NCBI GenBank assembly: GCA_009705865.1
Contig: WLSJ01000001.1
Span: forward strand, 1 to 46,572
Source of the DNA: Actinomycetota bacterium
Lineage (GTDB): Bacteria > Actinomycetota > Acidimicrobiia > Acidimicrobiales > Ilumatobacteraceae
Reading direction: 5' to 3'
Length of the DNA stretch: 46,572 bases
This document shows, in pieces, positions 8,393 to 46,572 of the stretch. Position numbers and translations under genes: made by a program. Each line of letters opens with the position of its first letter. Position 1 is the stretch's first letter. The notes under the pieces are model-generated. The model saw only the letters and a list, made by a program, of their open reading frames with translations, did not search any database and was not told the origin of the DNA.

Positions 8393-9124
8393 CTAGTTGT
8401 TTGCAGTGCGATTCAGGAATTGATGAGCAACGTCTGCATTACCAATGACTTCAAGTGACGACATAGGAATTCTGCGCCACAGTGCGAGCAAAAGATCTTG
8501 AGCAGTTCCTCGTAATGCACAGTCTCCCTTTGCATGTTCACGAGTCACAATGACTTCTGTTGTCTCTGTAGGCACAATTAGCCATTCACCATCAACGTCT
8601 GTGCAGTGAATGTGCACTGATCCGCTCAATACGTCTTCTTCTTCGCGGACATTGTGCACCGCCATTACATGTATGAACTCATCGATGCCATCACTTGCTA
8701 GGACGGAATCGATATGGGTTGTTTTGCCGGCCGCAGAATGTGCATCCCATGAATGAACTGCTGTCTCGTGAGCCATCCGCCGAATTACCCAGGCAACATC
8801 CTGGATGCCAGCCCATGTCCAGCATGAACGCGCAGGGTCAATAGACGATAAAACACTGATGAGCTCCTCGAGGCCCTTGCGGTATTCAGAGAGAAGATCT
8901 TTGTCGGCAGGCTTCGAACGCGGTACGTAATCATCGGGGTTCATCATGTGGCTTTCCACGATGAACTTCCATGAATAATGCACTTCGATCATGTGCCACA
9001 ACAGATCAGTTCCTACCCACGGTTCGCAGGAAGCAATGGGTGACGACATGGCAGTTGCTACAGAATCTGCAAATGCTACGCCTTCATGTCGCAATATTGC
9101 GAGGTAATCAGAAGACGTCAGCAT
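8393..9124 (-). CDS. mycothiol-dependent maleylpyruvate isomerase / DinB-family protein
   Basis: 243 aa with a DinB-like N-terminal four-helix region (LRHEGVAFADSV..., WVIRRMAHETAVHSWD) and the C-terminal domain typical of the actinobacterial mycothiol-dependent family. Confidence 0.75.
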   Translation of the reverse strand: MLTSSDYLAILRHEGVAFADSVATAMSSPIASCEPWVGTDLLWHMIEVHYSWKFIVESHMMNPDDYVPRSKPADKDLLSEYRKGLEELISVLSSIDPARSCWTWAGIQDVAWVIRRMAHETAVHSWDAHSAAGKTTHIDSVLASDGIDEFIHVMAVHNVREEEDVLSGSVHIHCTDVDGEWLIVPTETTEVIVTREHAKGDCALRGTAQDLLLALWRRIPMSSLEVIGNADVAHQFLNRTANN

Positions 9125-9140
9125 GATCTATTGAACGCAA

Positions 9141-10031
9141 TCAGATAGAGCGTGTGGCATCTGCCAGTTCTTGCCATTGCTTCATCGGCAACGTGCCAGG
9201 GGCATCGGTGAGTACCTGAACACATACGTGATCTGCACCAGAATCAAGATGTCCTTTGATGCGGGAAACTATTTGTTCCGTTGTGCCCCATGCAACGATG
9301 GCATCGACAACACGATCTTCTTGATTTGTCACTTCATCGGCTGTAAAGCCCATACGAACAAGGTTGTTCACATAGTTCGGCAAACGCGTGTATGTCTTCA
9401 TATGTTGGCGAGCAATGTCACGCGCCTTTGCTGGATCGGTTTCGAACACCACGGCTTGCTCTGGGGCCAGCAATGCACCAGCGCCCATAGTTTTGCGTGC
9501 AAATGCTGTGTGCTCCACAGGAATGAAATACGGGTGAGCCCCGGCACCACGTTCAGCTGCAAGCTTCAACATCTTTGGCCCTAGAGCTGCAAGAACTCGT
9601 TGCGGTGGCGTACTAGGCGCTGGTGAAAAGAAAATTCCTGCATCCATTGCGTCGAGATATTCAACCATTGTGGAATATGGCTTGTCGTAATTGCCCTTGT
9701 GCACGCCGTTCACCATTGGTGCATGGCTGACGCCCATTCCTAACAGGAAACGATCGGGAAATGCTTCGGTGACGGTTTTCCAACCGGCTTGCATTGTTTG
9801 CGCAGTGCGAGCATGAATGCTTGCGATACCCGTTGCCAAGACCATCTTCTTAGTAGCAGACAACAGCAGTGCGGTTGATGCAAAGGGCTCACGCAATACG
9901 GCTTCAGGAACCCACACAGTGCCGAAACCCATGGTCTCTACTTCTGCGATTGCTTCCTGCGCCTTAGCCATTGGTTGCAGGTCAAAGTCTGCAGTCCATA
10001 GTCCGACTCGTCCAAGATTAATTGTGCTCAT
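9141..10031 (-). CDS. luciferase-like monooxygenase (LLM) class F420-dependent oxidoreductase
   Basis: 296 aa. The N-terminus LGRVGLWT... and the overall TIM-barrel LLM pattern (GFGTVWVPE, GMGVSH) match this class. Confidence 0.8.
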   Translation of the reverse strand: MSTINLGRVGLWTADFDLQPMAKAQEAIAEVETMGFGTVWVPEAVLREPFASTALLLSATKKMVLATGIASIHARTAQTMQAGWKTVTEAFPDRFLLGMGVSHAPMVNGVHKGNYDKPYSTMVEYLDAMDAGIFFSPAPSTPPQRVLAALGPKMLKLAAERGAGAHPYFIPVEHTAFARKTMGAGALLAPEQAVVFETDPAKARDIARQHMKTYTRLPNYVNNLVRMGFTADEVTNQEDRVVDAIVAWGTTEQIVSRIKGHLDSGADHVCVQVLTDAPGTLPMKQWQELADATRSI

Positions 10032-10066
10032 GTCATTCAGACTAGAGCCTCAGTCTCGCGAAATGA

Positions 10067-10858
10067 TTAGCGCTGCAATAGCCAGTCGTCAATCAGACGG
10101 CGTGCGATTGAAATGGCTCCAGGAATCATGGGCAGGTCTTCCCTGTTGTACCAATTGGCATCAGCAATTTCGGTGGTATCACACACAATGTCGCCAGAGA
10201 CATAGCTGGCGCGAAATCCGAGCATCAGTGAATTCGGAAACGGCCACGGCTGACTTGCAACATATTGAATGTTGTTCACAACAATGCCCACTTCTTCTTC
10301 TACTTCACGCGCCACTGCTTGTTCCAAGTTTTCACCTGGTTCCACAAAGCCGGCAAGACATGAGTACAACGGCATTGGGAAATTAGTTCCTCGTGCAAGT
10401 AACGCCTGCTGGTCATCGCCTTCACCGCGCGTGACCAATGTGATGATGGCGGGAGACAAACGAGGAAACTGCATGAGCGAACATGCGGGGCATCGAAACG
10501 CACGCTCGTTGTGTGCAAGTTCAGTTGGTTCGCCGCATCGGCCGCAGAAACGATGCGTGCGCGCCCATTCAATGAGCTGTACCGCACGTCCCGCTACTGC
10601 CCATTCGGTATTACTGACACGGGCAAACAAGGAATACAGATCAGTCTCAGCGCCATAGCCAGGGTCTTCGCCATGCGGAACGTCAATACCCCAACAAGCA
10701 ATGTCTCCGTGCATGCCAAGAAAGTGACTGGTCCATCCTTCTTCGGCCGGACGGTCATCAATGAACACCTTGGTGCCAACCACATGGATATAGCGATGTT
10801 CAACCGCAGAATCGGCGGGAATCAGTGACGGGCGAAAGGGGGAATCTTGCTGGCTCAT
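10067..10858 (-). CDS. nudC: NAD+ diphosphatase (NADH pyrophosphatase), Nudix family
   Basis: It has the zinc ribbon CGRCGEPTELAHNERAFRCPAC followed by the Nudix box GFVEPGENLEQAVAREVEEEVG. I chose ATG 10858 (MSQQDSPF...) so that it does not overlap the divergent thiolase start. Confidence 0.85.
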   Translation of the reverse strand: MSQQDSPFRPSLIPADSAVEHRYIHVVGTKVFIDDRPAEEGWTSHFLGMHGDIACWGIDVPHGEDPGYGAETDLYSLFARVSNTEWAVAGRAVQLIEWARTHRFCGRCGEPTELAHNERAFRCPACSLMQFPRLSPAIITLVTRGEGDDQQALLARGTNFPMPLYSCLAGFVEPGENLEQAVAREVEEEVGIVVNNIQYVASQPWPFPNSLMLGFRASYVSGDIVCDTTEIADANWYNREDLPMIPGAISIARRLIDDWLLQR

Positions 10859-10902
10859 TGCCCACTGACGGTAGTGCGTATTGCGCTGTCTAGGATAACT
10901 AC

Positions 10903-41157: not shown

Positions 41158-41988
41158 CTACAGGACATTTGTTGCCAGCAACACAACACAAATTGTGCCA
41201 ATTGCTAATCGGTACCACCCAAAGACCTTGAATGAATGCGACGCCAGATATCCCACCATCCACCGCACGGCCACAATGGCCGTGACAAAGGCGACCACCA
41301 ATCCAATTAATGGGGCGAGAAGACCAAACTGATCAACGACATCGCCACCATGCTTTGATAAATCCAGTGCTGTTGCAGCTGACAAAGTCACTAGGCCAAG
41401 CAGGAAGCTGAATTCAATCGCCGCTGACATTGTCATGCCCACAGCAAGTGCCGCAATCAACGTCGCCAGGCTGCGACTAACGCCGGGCCACAATGCAAGT
41501 GCTTGTGCGACACCAATAATGAAAGCAGACCTAATGGAGATCTCATGGAAAGCCAGTGAACCGTTAGTTGGACGCCACCACAGAAGAAATACGCCACCAA
41601 TCAACCACGCAATTGTCACAGGAACTGGACCAAACAATGCTTCTTTCATGGCGTCACCAACTGCCGCACCGATAAGAGCTGCAGGAAGGAAGGCAACGAC
41701 TAATCGCACCAAAGATTGCCTACCAACCGCATCAGCACCTATGAGGCCTCGCACTAGCGACCACACACGAATGCGATATAGATACAGCACAGCGAGAATT
41801 GCGCCGAACTGAATAGCTATGGAATACGTATCTGCAGCAGTGCTGGTTGAGCTAGTACCAAAACCAATGAGGTCTCCAACGACAAGCAAATGCCCAGTTG
41901 ATGAGATGGGCAGGAATTCAGTGACGCCTTCAACTATTCCTAAGAGAACGGCTTCTGGAATCGACAACAAGCCTGCAAACATATTCAC
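41158..41988 (-). CDS. uppP: undecaprenyl-diphosphate phosphatase
   Basis: 276 aa and polytopic, with the signature GIVEGVTEFLPISSTGHLLVVG near the N-terminus. The start is GTG 41988 or ATG 41982. Confidence 0.9.
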   Translation of the reverse strand: MNMFAGLLSIPEAVLLGIVEGVTEFLPISSTGHLLVVGDLIGFGTSSTSTAADTYSIAIQFGAILAVLYLYRIRVWSLVRGLIGADAVGRQSLVRLVVAFLPAALIGAAVGDAMKEALFGPVPVTIAWLIGGVFLLWWRPTNGSLAFHEISIRSAFIIGVAQALALWPGVSRSLATLIAALAVGMTMSAAIEFSFLLGLVTLSAATALDLSKHGGDVVDQFGLLAPLIGLVVAFVTAIVAVRWMVGYLASHSFKVFGWYRLAIGTICVVLLATNVL

Positions 41989-42014
41989 AGTCTCTCATAT
42001 GCCAATAATTGGCG

Positions 42015-42761
42015 TTAGTCAATCACTGCCCACAGTGACCATGACAGCTTTTGTCCATCAACCTTTAGTGATCCATACTTGGCCGGATATTGGTAATTAG
42101 CAATAGATGCCGCCATCGTGGTGAGGTCACGTGTCGCACATGCGGGTCCTTTTTGAAGAGTAAAGGAGTACTTTGCACCAATGATCAATGCGCTATCCAC
42201 TGCGGCAGTTACTTTTTGACGAACACCGACTTCATTTTTAGCGGTGTACGCCATTGTTGCCATTGGTAGCCCATTATCAGCCACAATCGATGCCTGAAGG
42301 CACACGGCATTGGGGTCCGTAGCTTCTGTTGCCTCTACCAAGACTCCAATATTTGGGCTCTCAATTTCTACCTGAACTGTCTTCACAGAGTTAGTGATTG
42401 AAGTAAACGTTTGTGTAACGGATTGCGCAATGTTGATTTTCGTGCTGTTCGTAGCAGATTTATCAATGGGGTATGTCCCCCACACACAGTAATCAGCCTT
42501 CTTTATCCCGGCACATGAACCAGACACCTTCTCTGCGACTGGCTTCTTTTTCGGCACCGTGCCTACTGGTGGCGCAACAGGTGGCGCGATCGGCAGCGTC
42601 GTTGTCGTAGTAGTCGTGGTCGTCGATGTAGTCGATGTTGTTGTTGATGTTGTCAATGGAGCAACCGTGGTAGTCGGACTGCTATCTCCACCTGAACACG
42701 AAGAGACAATGACAATGCTCATGAGCACTAGTGCCACAGACCGGATATTTCCTTTTTTCAT
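42015..42761 (-). CDS. lipoprotein with a Thr/Pro-rich linker, function unknown
   Basis: ATG 42761 overlaps the stop of the upstream metzincin gene (ATGA). The signal plus lipobox is MKKGNIRSVALVLMSIVIVSSC, followed by a poly-Thr and PxxP linker and a roughly 170-aa globular domain with 4 Cys. Confidence 0.75.
   Translation of the reverse strand: MKKGNIRSVALVLMSIVIVSSCSGGDSSPTTTVAPLTTSTTTSTTSTTTTTTTTTLPIAPPVAPPVGTVPKKKPVAEKVSGSCAGIKKADYCVWGTYPIDKSATNSTKINIAQSVTQTFTSITNSVKTVQVEIESPNIGVLVEATEATDPNAVCLQASIVADNGLPMATMAYTAKNEVGVRQKVTAAVDSALIIGAKYSFTLQKGPACATRDLTTMAASIANYQYPAKYGSLKVDGQKLSWSLWAVID
42597..42674 (-). repeat. ACN-codon (Thr/Ser) low-complexity tract
   Basis: It encodes TTTVAPLTTSTTTSTTSTTTTTTTTT. 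The plus strand reads as imperfect (GTN)n. Confidence 0.8.
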
Positions 42762-45229
42762 TTCACTACCGTGCTTGTTCTGAATATGGTGGATCCAGAA
42801 GTTCCACGGACAGATATTGCGATGTTCAATGTTGAGCCTGAGACAAGATTTTTTGCGATACAACTTGTTTTACTATCCGACTTACATGTGCCGGCAGAGG
42901 TTTTCACCTTCACAAGAGAAACAGCCCCCAAAGAATCCTTGACTGTCCACTTTATTTTGACCGTTCCCGCCTTAGGTGAGGTCACTACGGGTACAAGTTT
43001 GATCTTTCCGGGAATAATTCTCCCAGAAGAGAGCACGTGCAAAAGACGATAACCACTCGAGTAAATTTTCACGTTTCCTGTTGACATCGCTCGACCATAG
43101 CAGTAAGTATCTTTACCTTTTACAGCCGTAAACGAGAATTCTTTCGACGCTGGCGTAGCACCTTGGTTAAAACCATATTTGGAATTCTGTTTCCCCTTCA
43201 CGACACAATTGACTTCAAGCAAATTCACATTGTTCTGATCTAATTCCGCTGCCGTGGCTGTGACCAGTAGGTTTTTGCCTGAAAATTTCGCGCTCAGAAC
43301 CGGGTCTTCTGGGAGCCCAGCAAGCGTTCTAGTAGTGAACAATGTCTCTCTAGACCCGGTCGCATTGGTTCCCTTCGCTATTAATTGCACTGCTGTTTTC
43401 CGTGGTAGGTCAGAAAACGTACACACAGTGTCGCCAAGAACTGCCAACACACATGGTTCGCGGCCAGCAATCTCAATAGTTGGAGTCCCTTGGATTTCAG
43501 ACCCACCGTTCTCCACATGAACTGTTGCTACAACCGAGTCAGAAGTGGCCGTAAATGTAGAACGGAAGATAGGCGCGACGTTTGATAGCTGCGTGGCAGC
43601 CGAAGTAATGCGATTCGATGAAACAGCGCCATTTATCCCAGCAACTGTGGGAGAAACAACTGTCTCACGAGCAACATTGAGTATTTGACATGACGACTCC
43701 CATACAAATGCGGTACACGCTTTTGTTGCATCTTCTAGAAGATTCACAGACCATGAACTCGGTTCATCTTCTCCATAGGCGGAGCCAGCGACACCCCATG
43801 CCACGTTCAATGTGGCTTCACCTGACTGGTCAGCGGTCCCTGTCACGGTGGCTGGATCTGTTACAGCAAAACTCATTACAGGTTCAATACGCACCGTTGC
43901 ACTTGTGCCGTTGGTTGATTCGACTGAGACTGTGAATCGATTACGCGGGTCGGTCCATGATCGAAGTGCAGGAAGTCGAGGATCATTGGCATAGTCAATT
44001 GAGGTGAGAGATGCAGTGGGCGGAGTGATGTCACACAGATAGCTGGTACTAGACGCAACACCGACTACCCCTTCCAGACTTATTCGGTGAGTTGAAAAAT
44101 CTGCAGAAGGCTCATACGTGATTGTCACACCTCCGTTTACAGGAGCAGCAGCCGGAGAGATTGAGGTAATTACATTTGGGTTGTATTGCAGCCAGAATTC
44201 ATTATCACCCGCAGCGACATCAGTCGGCAAAATATTGACGGCAGTAGTTCCAAGGTCACTTCGGTCAGGTCTATTCAAAATGACCGTTTGTGCAGAGCCG
44301 GTCCATACTGCAACATTGGAAGCTGGAAGCCAACCAACGCTTTCCAAAAACGTCGGAGCATAATAACCAGAGGCACCGGCAATACCCATCGTGTCTGCGA
44401 GATTTCCGTATTCAACTTCCTCGCACGATTTCAAATACGTCAATGTCACGCCGGCATTGCAGGTGTTGGCATGAGGAAAGCCCATATTGTGTCCGAGCTC
44501 ATGTGCCCACACACCCATATAACCCGGGGCGGTGTAAGTCCAAGTCAATTTGCCTTCAACTTCACCTAGACCACCAAAGTTGCAATCTTGATTGTCGCCA
44601 GTAAAAGTCATCATGACATGGTCAGAACTCTCTGTTAACCCTTGCTTCTCAACATAAGCGAGAGCAAGGTCAGACATTTCATAAAAGTTGCATTGTCCAG
44701 CCGAATTGACCGAAGAGACATTTACTGTTGATAAAAAATTGACAGACAGAGTCTCTTGATTAGCCGACATACTGCGCCACCACGTTTTCAACTGTGTCGC
44801 AATTCCATTTGCCACTGTCCGGTCAGCGCTCTTCCATGTTGCACCAGACCACTGCAACGGCACCACCGTTACTGTGCGATTTGCTACCACAGCAGTTGAG
44901 TGCACTGGTCGACGGACCGTTATTGCTTTTGACAAAGAAGACGCCGTAACTTCCGATCCGACCTTTTTTGAAAACGACACAAGAGATCCGCTGCTTTGTT
45001 GAACTTCAACTTCTGAATCAACCGGAATTACACGATCGCTAGTCTTGACCACCCACGTGGAGTTACCCGCTGCTTCAAATCGCCCGTCATTAGAAGCCAG
45101 TTTGAGCAATGTGCCACTGATGGCATTGACCGCCGGAGTCATCGCTGCCTGTACTGGCGTAATCGCCGATGAAAAAGCCGCTGACCCAACTAGGACGAGA
45201 CTTGCCCCGAGCCACCGAAAACTTTTCAC
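42758..45229 (-). CDS. secreted metzincin-type zinc metalloprotease with multiple Ig/Fn3-like domains (gametolysin/M11-like core, tentative)
   Basis: GTG start and signal peptide MKSFRWLGASLVLVGSAAFSSAITPVQA. HELGHNMGFPH (HExxHxxGxxH) lies at nt 44503-44471, followed by EYGNLADTMG...ESVGWL. About 500 aa of beta-rich repeats follow. Confidence 0.8.
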   Translation of the reverse strand: MKSFRWLGASLVLVGSAAFSSAITPVQAAMTPAVNAISGTLLKLASNDGRFEAAGNSTWVVKTSDRVIPVDSEVEVQQSSGSLVSFSKKVGSEVTASSLSKAITVRRPVHSTAVVANRTVTVVPLQWSGATWKSADRTVANGIATQLKTWWRSMSANQETLSVNFLSTVNVSSVNSAGQCNFYEMSDLALAYVEKQGLTESSDHVMMTFTGDNQDCNFGGLGEVEGKLTWTYTAPGYMGVWAHELGHNMGFPHANTCNAGVTLTYLKSCEEVEYGNLADTMGIAGASGYYAPTFLESVGWLPASNVAVWTGSAQTVILNRPDRSDLGTTAVNILPTDVAAGDNEFWLQYNPNVITSISPAAAPVNGGVTITYEPSADFSTHRISLEGVVGVASSTSYLCDITPPTASLTSIDYANDPRLPALRSWTDPRNRFTVSVESTNGTSATVRIEPVMSFAVTDPATVTGTADQSGEATLNVAWGVAGSAYGEDEPSSWSVNLLEDATKACTAFVWESSCQILNVARETVVSPTVAGINGAVSSNRITSAATQLSNVAPIFRSTFTATSDSVVATVHVENGGSEIQGTPTIEIAGREPCVLAVLGDTVCTFSDLPRKTAVQLIAKGTNATGSRETLFTTRTLAGLPEDPVLSAKFSGKNLLVTATAAELDQNNVNLLEVNCVVKGKQNSKYGFNQGATPASKEFSFTAVKGKDTYCYGRAMSTGNVKIYSSGYRLLHVLSSGRIIPGKIKLVPVVTSPKAGTVKIKWTVKDSLGAVSLVKVKTSAGTCKSDSKTSCIAKNLVSGSTLNIAISVRGTSGSTIFRTSTVVK

Positions 45230-45253
45230 CTGCCCAATGTACCCAAGCCTGGG

Positions 45254-46042
45254 CTACTGAATCATGTTTTGCACGGCACTAGCGATGGGGCTGATGTCAA
45301 CATCGGCCCCACTTCCCTGTCCATCATTGGTTCCATGCCCAAACGGATTGTCAAGATCTTTCACCAGCAACAACAAATATGCATAGGCAAGGCTCAGAAC
45401 TGACGGGGCGATCCAGGACATGATGGTGGAGGGGAAACTAACAACCGCCAGAGAGACCTGCAGCACGAGCACAAGAAAACTCATTAATACGTAACCCGAT
45501 TGCACGAACGACGTGTTTCGAATGACCGCAATTCTGTTCAGTACTCCGGTCAATTCTCCGTTCAAGACCATGAGTCGACTGAGGTAATGAGTTGCTACTC
45601 CACTTTTCTCAACATCAACTATTAGTAACGCTAAATCGGAGTGCCTTTTCCATAACTCTTCGTCGCTGATTCTCCCTATGCACCACGAATTAATAGCAAT
45701 CCCCACTTCAGATATTCGCTGACGAAAAGAGCGCGCGTCTATCTCTTTCAGTGCCAAACCTGAACTGCAGGTTGTGTAGAAGCTTGTCAATGCCACGGCA
45801 ACGACTGCTGGCAATTTTTCAGATTCCTTATAGTCAGCGAGAACACCACCCAACATGAAACCCAAGATGAGCGTTACCCCCGTAATCACTGAACCGATCT
45901 CAGCAAAAGTGGCAACTTCTCCGATGTTAAAGACCTCACGCAGAATGACGCGCAATACCATTACCGCGATTACTACGGGAATCGATAACAGCAACAATCG
46001 CAGACGATTGAGGAATTTGTTCTGAAGCAATAAAGTTTTCAC
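45254..46042 (-). CDS. bestrophin-like / DUF4239-like integral membrane protein (tentative)
   Basis: 262 aa with four hydrophobic helices in a 2+2 arrangement around a soluble helical insert. The C-terminal KDLDNPFG...DVDISPI resembles the bacterial bestrophin EDPFG...D.D motif. GTG start at 46042. Confidence 0.65.
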   Translation of the reverse strand: MKTLLLQNKFLNRLRLLLLSIPVVIAVMVLRVILREVFNIGEVATFAEIGSVITGVTLILGFMLGGVLADYKESEKLPAVVAVALTSFYTTCSSGLALKEIDARSFRQRISEVGIAINSWCIGRISDEELWKRHSDLALLIVDVEKSGVATHYLSRLMVLNGELTGVLNRIAVIRNTSFVQSGYVLMSFLVLVLQVSLAVVSFPSTIMSWIAPSVLSLAYAYLLLLVKDLDNPFGHGTNDGQGSGADVDISPIASAVQNMIQ

Positions 46043-46063
46043 GGCAAAAACTTAGCGAGTTAT

Positions 46064-46101
46064 TGGCAGTCCCAACGGGATTCGAACCCGTGCCGCCACC
46101 T
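46064..46101 (-). pseudogene. tRNA 3'-half remnant (anticodon-stem 3' strand, variable loop, T-arm, acceptor 3' strand, CCA)
   Basis: The minus strand reads AGGTG-GCGGC-ACGGG-TTCGAAT-CCCGT-TGGGACT-G-CCA. No matching 5' acceptor strand (AGTCCCA) or D-arm lies upstream. Confidence 0.6.
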
Positions 46102-46148
46102 ACGACAAGTAGATGCCCGGTGGACGACATGGGTAGAAATTCTGACAC
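46098..46148 (-). pseudogene. 17-codon relic of a diverged uppP gene
   Basis: It translates to VSEFLPMSSTGHLLVVG, against VTEFLPISSTGHLLVVG in the intact UppP (41925-41875). That is 15/17 aa and 38/51 nt identical, and 11 of the 13 nt differences fall at third codon positions. TGA lies immediately upstream at 46151-46149. Confidence 0.65.
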
Positions 46149-46272
46149 TCATAGGCAATGCAGACCCACCAAAGTGTCCCGCCTTGATTGAATCGCTCTA
46201 TCCCATGGTTGGTTTGATTGACGAGTTAGGCTGGCATTTTAAGTAGACAGCAAATCTAATAAAGGTTCCATC

Positions 46273-46572
46273 ATGGCTTTCAATCGCTTCGGCACATTCA
46301 CACTCGGCATCATCATTGCTGCGGTATCAGCAGGAGCAGTGAACTTCGCAAACGCCGCAGGTAACACAACACTGAAAGCTTGTGCCGACAAAGCATCCGG
46401 CACGATGCGTTACATCTCAAAAGGCTCGTGCAAAAAGACTGAAAAAGCTCTGTCCTGGAATCAAATAGGCCCGTCTGGTGCAACCGGGACAAATGGTCAA
46501 AATCATTTTGCTGTGGATGCAACGGGAAAGACTTTAGGAGTAGTTACTGGCACTGGTTGGGGTGCGTATGAC
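46273..46572 (+). CDS. secreted protein with a Cys pair and short collagen-like G-X-Y run (3' end outside the window)
   Basis: The frame from ATG 46273 stays open to the window end (100 codons): MAFNRFGTFTLGIIIAAVSAGAVNFANAAGNTTLKACADKASGTMRYISKGSCKKTEKALSWNQIGPSGATGTNGQNHF.... It has a signal peptide and AAAGG 7 nt upstream. It is absent from the ORF track because no stop is reached. Confidence 0.65.
   Translation, partial: MAFNRFGTFTLGIIIAAVSAGAVNFANAAGNTTLKACADKASGTMRYISKGSCKKTEKALSWNQIGPSGATGTNGQNHFAVDATGKTLGVVTGTGWGAYD

Follow-up and report, generated by a model that had tools for sequence, protein, structure and literature searches.

The short scar at positions 46064–46148 of the window, the whole 46,572-nt stretch of DNA analysed here, is probably the attR-like, far-end junction of a cassette of about 985 bp, which has no integrase, is inserted in the tRNA-Glu(CUC) gene of freshwater Ilumatobacteraceae, and carries a passenger stump of uppP from a type A-like arrangement (tRNA-Glu, a secreted-protein gene, and uppP). 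The cassette lay between the intact tRNA-Glu gene and a displaced half of it, and was composed of the secreted-protein gene, a spacer of 124 nt, and the uppP stump. The secreted-protein gene, the cargo and the only ORF of the cassette, encoded a 249-aa protein on the strand opposite to tRNA-Glu, and its 5′ part occupied 46273–46572 of the plus strand, where it was cut by the window end. The spacer (46149–46272, minus strand) was homologous to the region between the secreted-protein gene and uppP of L003/L052-type genomes, with a colinear alignment. The stump (46098–46142, minus strand) ran into the displaced tRNA half (46062–46101, minus strand). On the original chromosome, tRNA-Glu was followed first by a gene outside the cassette, termed X (45254–46042, minus strand), which encodes a 262-aa membrane protein. 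No integrase, relaxase, or transfer gene was found in the 985 bp, and a tblastn search with the integrase of a relative, L018, detected no integrase near the cassette in a 56-kb composite.

The minus-strand sequence of the relic from 46148 to 46098, GTGTCAGAATTTCTACCCATGTCGTCCACCGGGCATCTACTTGTCGTAGGT, was translated as VSEFLPMSSTGHLLVVG, and GGCGGCACGGGTTCGAATCCCGTTGGGACTGCCA followed without a gap. The resident uppP gene (BacA, PF02673 at full length; 41158–41988, minus strand) was intact, was the conserved element that bounds the variable tRNA-Glu-to-uppP region on the right, and encoded VTEFLPISSTGHLLVVG at the counterpart of the relic (41925–41875, minus strand). A recount reproduced the 38 identical nucleotides out of 51 that the sequence-only reading had reported for this pair, with 11 of the 13 differences at third codon positions; nine of the 11 changed codons were synonymous. 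The similarity between the relic and uppP is not a chance match, and the best unrelated 51-mer of the entire window, on both strands, matched the relic at 27/51 nt.

The sequence-only reading had assigned 17 codons to uppP. The homology was real, but it covered only 15 codons (46142–46098, minus strand; EFLPMSSTGHLLVVG), which corresponded to the BacA/UppP signature motif and matched the resident gene at 35/45 nt. The other two codons, GTG TCA (46143–46148, minus strand), earlier read as Val-Ser, aligned with the non-coding sequence AAGTGTCAGA in L003 and L052, where it precedes the uppP start codon by about 11 nt; they were therefore not derived from uppP. They formed the end of the non-coding spacer, directly 5′ of a 74-nt deletion, the joint of which was ambiguous within GA (46142–46141). 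A TGA codon was present at 46151–46149, where it had been placed before. The abrupt stop of homology on the 5′ side held against the resident gene, whereas against L003/L052-type loci the homology ran on through the spacer and the neighbouring gene and was broken by the 74-nt deletion.

The stump was not a UppP/BacA gene, as it contained no full-length PF02673 domain, its start and first 22 codons were deleted, and the remainder of the gene was absent. It matched nearly all uppP alleles of related species at 33–38/45 nt, with lower values for L020 (28) and L021 (32), and its last 21 nt were identical to the L052 allele. A closest donor lineage, which had been proposed as a target for a search, was not nameable from 45 nt with family alleles at 28–38/45. 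The flanks of the stump identify it as type A in origin. The earlier view that the relic did not arise by recent copying of the resident gene held, with a divergence of 22% in the uppP part compared with 2.5% in the tRNA part, and with an upstream flank of a different locus type.

The displaced half of tRNA-Glu(CUC), an attR-like direct repeat, was composed of the 3′ strand of the anticodon stem, the variable loop, the T arm, the 3′ strand of the acceptor stem, G73, CCA, and an additional AT. Positions 46101–46062 (minus strand) matched positions 9046–9085 of contig L001, inside an intact tRNA-Glu gene, at 39/40 nt (97.5%) in direct orientation, and the sole mismatch was at window position 46070. 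The 40-nt repeat began with the final anticodon-loop base and ended two bases beyond CCA. The claim that the relic is joined straight to a tRNA 3′ half, as two unrelated gene fragments, was thus confirmed by the sequence.

The intact tRNA-Glu(CUC) gene was located at 9008–9083 in L001, 3729–3804 in L002, and 3959–4034 in L045. These contigs were 99.3–99.7% identical to the window. L001 and L002, both of which run past the window end, are NCBI MAG contigs and encode the 262-aa protein adjoining the scar. Based on the three contigs, the intact tRNA-Glu gene is located about 476–551 nt past the window end; in L001, tRNA-Gln and gltX were found further upstream of it. The proposed search for an intact tRNA sharing this 3′ half was therefore answered by tRNA-Glu(CUC), just outside the window in 99.4%-identical contigs.

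Within the window, ARAGORN found no tRNA gene. The Rfam tRNA model matched only the T arm (positions 44–63) with 15 bits, compared with a gathering score of 29, and the minimum free energy fold of the 85 nt (46064–46148) was not a cloverleaf. These checks, which had been suggested with the sequence-only reading, agreed with its claim that no complete tRNA is present. Its assignment of the half to tRNA-Trp through the identity set A1:U72 and G73 did not hold. A tRNA-Trp identity was ruled out by the 39/40 match to tRNA-Glu(CUC), and the adenine at 46070 behind that reading of the acceptor stem was a mutation specific to the window species. The run was GGGACT in the window and GGGGCT in the displaced halves of L042–L044, L046–L049, and L055. 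The displaced half of L057 had its own mutation in the same run, TTTGGGCT.

The joint of the stump and the displaced half contained AGGTG (46097–46101, minus strand), a 5-nt microhomology. In tRNA-Glu, its first base is the 3′-terminal one of the anticodon loop, and the other four begin the 3′ strand of the anticodon stem. In the parental sequences, GTAGGTG is followed by AACTCAT in the uppP alleles, and CTCAAGGTG is followed by GCGGCAC in tRNA-Glu. After GTCGTAGGTG, the window genome ran into the tRNA (GCGGCACGGG) and not into uppP (AACTCAT). A chance similarity between tRNA-Glu and the uppP motif as the driver of a homeologous recombination was considered and rejected, with a Smith–Waterman score of 7, whereas random windows of the genome gave a mean of 7.9. 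In L001, the public gene call of the 262-aa protein (10001–10877) was 877 nt long, which is not a multiple of three, and began at an ATG within the uppP stump. The scar seems to interfere with the automatic annotation of this gene.

Relatives were found by a scan with the resident UppP, using one genome per species. Among the freshwater Ilumatobacteraceae (Acidimicrobiia) relatives, the order tRNA-Gln, tRNA-Glu, and uppP was conserved, and the distance between tRNA-Glu and uppP ranged from 54 nt (L008) to 5.7 kb (L006). In the type A arrangement (L003, L052, and L053), the secreted-protein gene lay on the minus strand between tRNA-Glu and an intact uppP. The window genome was colinear with type A from tRNA-Glu through the secreted-protein gene and the spacer to the uppP motif, and the cassette region was about 84% identical to L003 across the complement of 8994–9961. 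Compared with type A, 74 nt were missing from the window genome. These nucleotides, located between GTGTCAGA and GTTC in type A, contained the uppP start codon and the first 22 codons.

In the type B arrangement (L005, L013, L014, L016, L017, and the truncated contig L004), tRNA-Glu was followed by X, the M66 gene, the lipoprotein gene, and uppP. In L006 and L011, tRNA-Glu abutted X, and the orders were X, ligase, M66, lipoprotein, and uppP, and X, ligase, and uppP, respectively. When L004–L006, L011, L013, L014, L016, and L017 were aligned to the window, the match and the displaced half began at the very same base. Therefore, with tRNA-Glu abutting X and the alignment starting at the displaced half, these loci represent the empty site.

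The interval between tRNA-Glu and uppP (41989–46061 in the window; L003–L021 among the relatives) was a cassette hotspot, the modules of which were mostly surface or secreted proteins. A variable subset of five modules was present in a fixed order, namely a SHOCT protein, the 262-aa X, an AMP-ligase, an M66-like 822-aa protein, and a Thr-rich lipoprotein. In the window, an 823-aa M66-like ORF and a 282-aa Thr-rich lipoprotein ORF overlapped by 106 nt as listed (42758–42863). The lipoprotein of the relatives was 243–247 aa long, and thus the start of the window lipoprotein is probably located further downstream. The records of L005, L006, and L015 were titled ‘Bifidobacterium breve’; their loci were syntenic with Ilumatobacteraceae MAGs, their UppP proteins were 76–80% identical to that of the window, and they are probably mislabelled submissions.

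Other copies of the cassette were found by a metagenome scan for the joint and by look-ups of homologues of the cargo protein. The same joint and the same 74-nt gap were present in four downstream contexts: X, the SHOCT gene followed by X, an ABC-transporter operon, and a deacetylase gene. L042, which was 97% identical to the window genome, had the displaced half, the SHOCT gene, and then X. In lineage C (L043, L044, L046–L050, and L055–L057), gltX, DUF218, tRNA-Gln, tRNA-Glu, the cargo gene, and the joined stump and half were followed by the ABC-transporter operon or directly by the deacetylase gene, and no uppP was found within about 6 kb. The core genes of lineage C were 69–74% identical to those of the window genome (71.4% for the leuA region, 68.8% for gltX/DUF218, and 74.4% for DUF2237). 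The block that starts with tRNA-Glu and ends with the half was 86.0% identical over 1,069 nt, including the non-coding spacer. With no uppP nearby in lineage C, and with 86% identity in the cassette compared with 69–71% in the flanking core, the stump therefore travels with the cassette. These identities indicate that the cassette moved horizontally as a unit bounded by tRNA-derived repeats.

Further rearrangements were observed around the displaced half. The SHOCT-domain gene of L042 (176–540), located between the half and X and absent from the window genome, was bounded by a 9-nt repeat, CCAATTGCT, consisting of the tRNA 3′ end and 6 nt. Its insertion, at the very 3′ end of the tRNA, may be of a second type. 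Within lineage C, a 4.9-kb ABC-transporter operon was present or absent right after the displaced half (reverse complement 6906–11832 of L046, compared with 83–86 of L043). The operon was preceded by an island-type left-arm sequence, TTCTTGCTATGCG, resembling that of L018, and this sequence suggests a possible tandem accretion of cassettes. In addition, the Leu codon CTA of the stump was changed to GGC at 9–18 of L043, at about 700–712 of L044, and at the equivalent positions of L046–L057. The change created the 10-mer TTGGCCCCAT, which is identical to the start of tRNA-Glu together with the 2 nt before it, and the three adjacent changes suggest that a templated patch, rather than point mutations, may have altered this codon.

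Tyrosine integrases (PF00589 with a SAM-like N-terminal domain) were located directly beside a pseudo-tRNA-Glu in L018 and L015. In L018, the order was tRNA-Glu, three secreted collagen-repeat/Lcl_C genes (minus strand), the integrase (minus strand), the pseudo-tRNA-Glu, X, and uppP. The N-terminal 77 aa of the cargo protein were 74% identical to the collagen-repeat/Lcl_C proteins of this island, and the module was present in all three L018 genes. The sequence just after the intact tRNA, ATTGCTTCTTGCTATGC, was common to the window-type genome and L018. The pseudo-tRNA-Glu (9029–9099 in L018; about 1125–1225 in L015) had an insertion of about 20 nt in the D arm and abutted the start of the tyrosine integrase gene; the L018 copy was called by ARAGORN as a 71-nt tRNA-Glu. 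The pseudo-tRNA-Glu resembles the attachment-site arm of a family of intact islands. None of the relatives showed conjugation or mobilization genes.

The only match in a scan of viral contigs for the 3′ part of tRNA-Glu was L058, a high-GC IMG/VR phage contig (3382–4588). Its attP was identical to tRNA-Glu over the stretch that begins with the anticodon loop and ends with CCA, and an Arm-DNA-binding tyrosine integrase gene was located 110 nt downstream of the attP. This attP is informative on the class of site and is unrelated to the cassette. The uppP/tRNA joint had no match in the scan of viral contigs, and no circular form or true attP of the cassette was found.

An independent half tRNA-Glu was present in L009, where it started 1 nt earlier than that of the window. 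The two independent half-tRNA joints, the window-type one and that of L009, were both at the edge of the anticodon loop, 1 nt apart. In the cassette, repeat identity began with the final base of the anticodon loop, and the repeats did not share the loop itself, whereas the L058 attP shared the whole loop. Both edges of the anticodon loop are expected to be cut positions of anticodon-centred integrases. In the Islander collection, island ends consist of a regenerated tDNA and a displaced fragment and are mostly anticodon-centred, this class accounting for 2,083 of the 3,919 islands (PMC4383910).

From the anatomy of the cassette, its colinearity with type A, the empty site, its presence in unrelated backgrounds, and its decay, which were all observed, we infer the following order of events and the type of enzyme involved. 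The cassette would descend from an adjacency of tRNA-Glu, the secreted-protein gene, and uppP, such as that preserved in L003 and L052. The tRNA would have recombined, at the 3′ margin of its anticodon loop, with AGGTG just after the uppP motif, and the stretch between them would have been cut out or copied. This recombination at AGGTG would have produced the joint of uppP and the tRNA 3′ half, and the uppP start and first 22 codons would have been lost later with the 74-nt deletion. The unit would then have been inserted in the tRNA-Glu genes of other lineages, displacing the original 3′ half (46101–46062) by about 1 kb downstream, beside its old neighbour X. The cassette brings a fresh tRNA 3′ half, and thus the tRNA-Glu gene stays intact. 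The joining and the insertions may have been carried out in trans by a tyrosine integrase of the kind found beside the pseudo-tRNA-Glu in L018 and L015, with AGGTG in uppP as a pseudo-site. The joint itself was most likely formed by an integrase or by microhomology recombination at AGGTG. As for the direction, an X-type genome may have received the cassette, or an L003-type genome may have received the X block. The sequence-only reading proposed the right class of explanation, namely recombination at an attachment site in a tRNA gene. The nested or successive site-specific events which that reading envisaged are not required, and one aberrant recombination, one small deletion, and an ordinary cassette insertion suffice.

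Against the action of an integrase, none was found in the 56 kb, no circle was detected, the repeats did not share the canonical 7-nt overlap in the loop, and a 5-nt microhomology fits a non-enzymatic illegitimate recombination equally well. The main alternative is a route without any integrase, which we consider unlikely. By this route, foreign DNA would have been taken up and joined by homology-facilitated illegitimate recombination, with one end anchored in or upstream of tRNA-Glu (or in uppP) and the other joined at AGGTG, and the product would have spread by homologous recombination with the full tRNA and the 40-nt half as arms. The microhomology was located exactly at the joint, the cassette was devoid of an integrase, flanks of 76 nt and 40 nt were identical in every recipient tRNA-Glu, and the interval was a hotspot in which modules were swapped between conserved borders, all of which support this route. 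However, two random events in a gene of 76 nt are unlikely to have placed this joint at the 3′ boundary of the anticodon loop and the start of the L009 half 1 nt away, and integrase-bearing islands used the same tRNA in relatives. Furthermore, arms of 38–40 nt are close to the minimum length for RecA-dependent exchange, which counts against a spread by this route.

A tandem duplication in situ, of the segment spanning the tRNA-Glu 3′ half through the uppP motif in the ancestor of the window genome itself, with most of the first copy lost and the stump left as a paralogue of the resident uppP, was very improbable. Such a duplication would give the interleaved order of tRNA 3′ part, uppP motif, tRNA 3′ part, and uppP motif, and the gap between the tRNA and uppP was only 54 nt in L008. 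However, the upstream flank of the stump matched the L003/L052-type locus and not the upstream region of the resident uppP, the stump differed from the resident uppP by 22% compared with 2.5% between the tRNA halves, and the joint was also present in lineage C, which had no uppP within about 6 kb and a much lower core identity. A function of the stretch, as a small ORF, a tRNA-like RNA, or an element that regulates the downstream operon, was scarcely credible, even with a joint kept in several lineages and a fold slightly more stable than those of shuffled sequences (z = −2.0). The stumps of lineage C had lost one C (TTTGGCCCATG), which caused a frameshift, and also had an ACC to ATC change. 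The 70-aa ORF that ran through the scar (46148–45936, minus strand) had a completely different downstream part in each context. The displaced halves had accumulated different substitutions in the T loop, the acceptor strand, and the discriminator base, namely G70A in the window species, G73A and a change after CCA in L046, a C-to-T change in the T loop of L049, and GTTTGGG in L057. Rfam gave nothing at the gathering score in the region or the whole window, no cloverleaf was formed, and a promoter and terminator scan around the scar revealed nothing relevant and no promoter-like site. The frameshift and the tRNA-arm mutations in the copies therefore mark the scar as non-functional.

Beyond the reading of the scar as the far-end junction of an integrase-less cassette, a more far-reaching proposal is that the uppP stump is a working left arm of a new attachment site. 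It would have arisen when an integrase recombined tRNA-Glu with a look-alike site in uppP, and the cassette would hop between the tRNA-Glu genes of distantly related freshwater Acidimicrobiia by using the integrases of other islands. We regard this proposal as speculative and quite doubtful. If it were true, the scar would record the natural birth of an att site by capture of a housekeeping-gene fragment. Excision, if active, would leave tRNA-Glu ending in GGGGCTGCCAAT directly before AACTCGCTAAGTTTTTGCC, together with a circle joint in which CTTGTCGTAGGTGGCGGC and GGGGCTGCCAATTGCTTCTTGCTATGCC run into the 3′ end of the secreted-protein gene.

The locus provides a worked example of the remodelling of a tRNA-linked variable region in uncultured freshwater Ilumatobacteraceae, in which small cassettes of secreted or surface proteins stack behind tRNA-Glu and each leaves a tRNA-derived repeat. 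The 45-nt stump serves as a natural barcode, which marks a cassette that was once beside uppP and later passed into lineages with a core identity of only about 70%, and is useful for tracing cassette exchange in metagenomes. In annotation, neither the half tRNA nor the stump should be listed as a gene.

The arrangement resembled the tDNA-integrated islands of Islander in several respects. The intact tRNA was regenerated by the island sequence, the displaced 3′ fragment was located at the other end in direct orientation and started at the boundary of the anticodon loop and stem, the empty site was present in relatives, and integrase-bearing islands and a phage attP used the same tRNA. However, the unit in the window was about 1 kb long with one cargo gene and had no integrase, which is a criterion for these islands. 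In addition, its arm at the crossover was a fragment of a host housekeeping gene, and the repeat identity began after the anticodon loop.

CIMEs are decayed remnants of ICEs or IMEs, which keep attL and attR, have lost the genes for integration and transfer, and often form tandem arrays by accretion (PMC5704250). Like them, the cassette was flanked by 40-nt direct repeats that are att-like at the level of sequence, contained no recombination genes, and was located at a locus with tandem cassettes. In lineage C, the half was followed by a second island-type left arm (TTCTTGCTATGCG), as in L018. Unlike the CIMEs, which were defined in Firmicutes, the cassette belongs to an uncultured actinobacterium. 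The preferred account, an integrase-less cassette at tRNA-Glu, would match the definition of a CIME-like remnant (PMC5704250).

The joint also resembled those of homology-facilitated illegitimate recombination, which combine a 5-nt microhomology between unrelated sequences with a long homologous anchor nearby, but its position was the predicted cleavage position of a recombinase and recurred within 1 nt in L009. In the lambda gal and bio specialized transducing phages, aberrant excision captures flanking host DNA. By the same logic, a piece of a former flanking gene, uppP, is now permanent at the end of the element and moves to new hosts; in contrast to lambda, no phage is involved, only 45 nt were captured, and the piece replaces the crossover arm rather than extending the element. 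A displaced tRNA fragment at the end of a degenerate tDNA-integrated islet is a well-known kind of feature and does not constitute a new type of system, and the unusual detail of this one is that its crossover arm is a captured fragment of a housekeeping gene.
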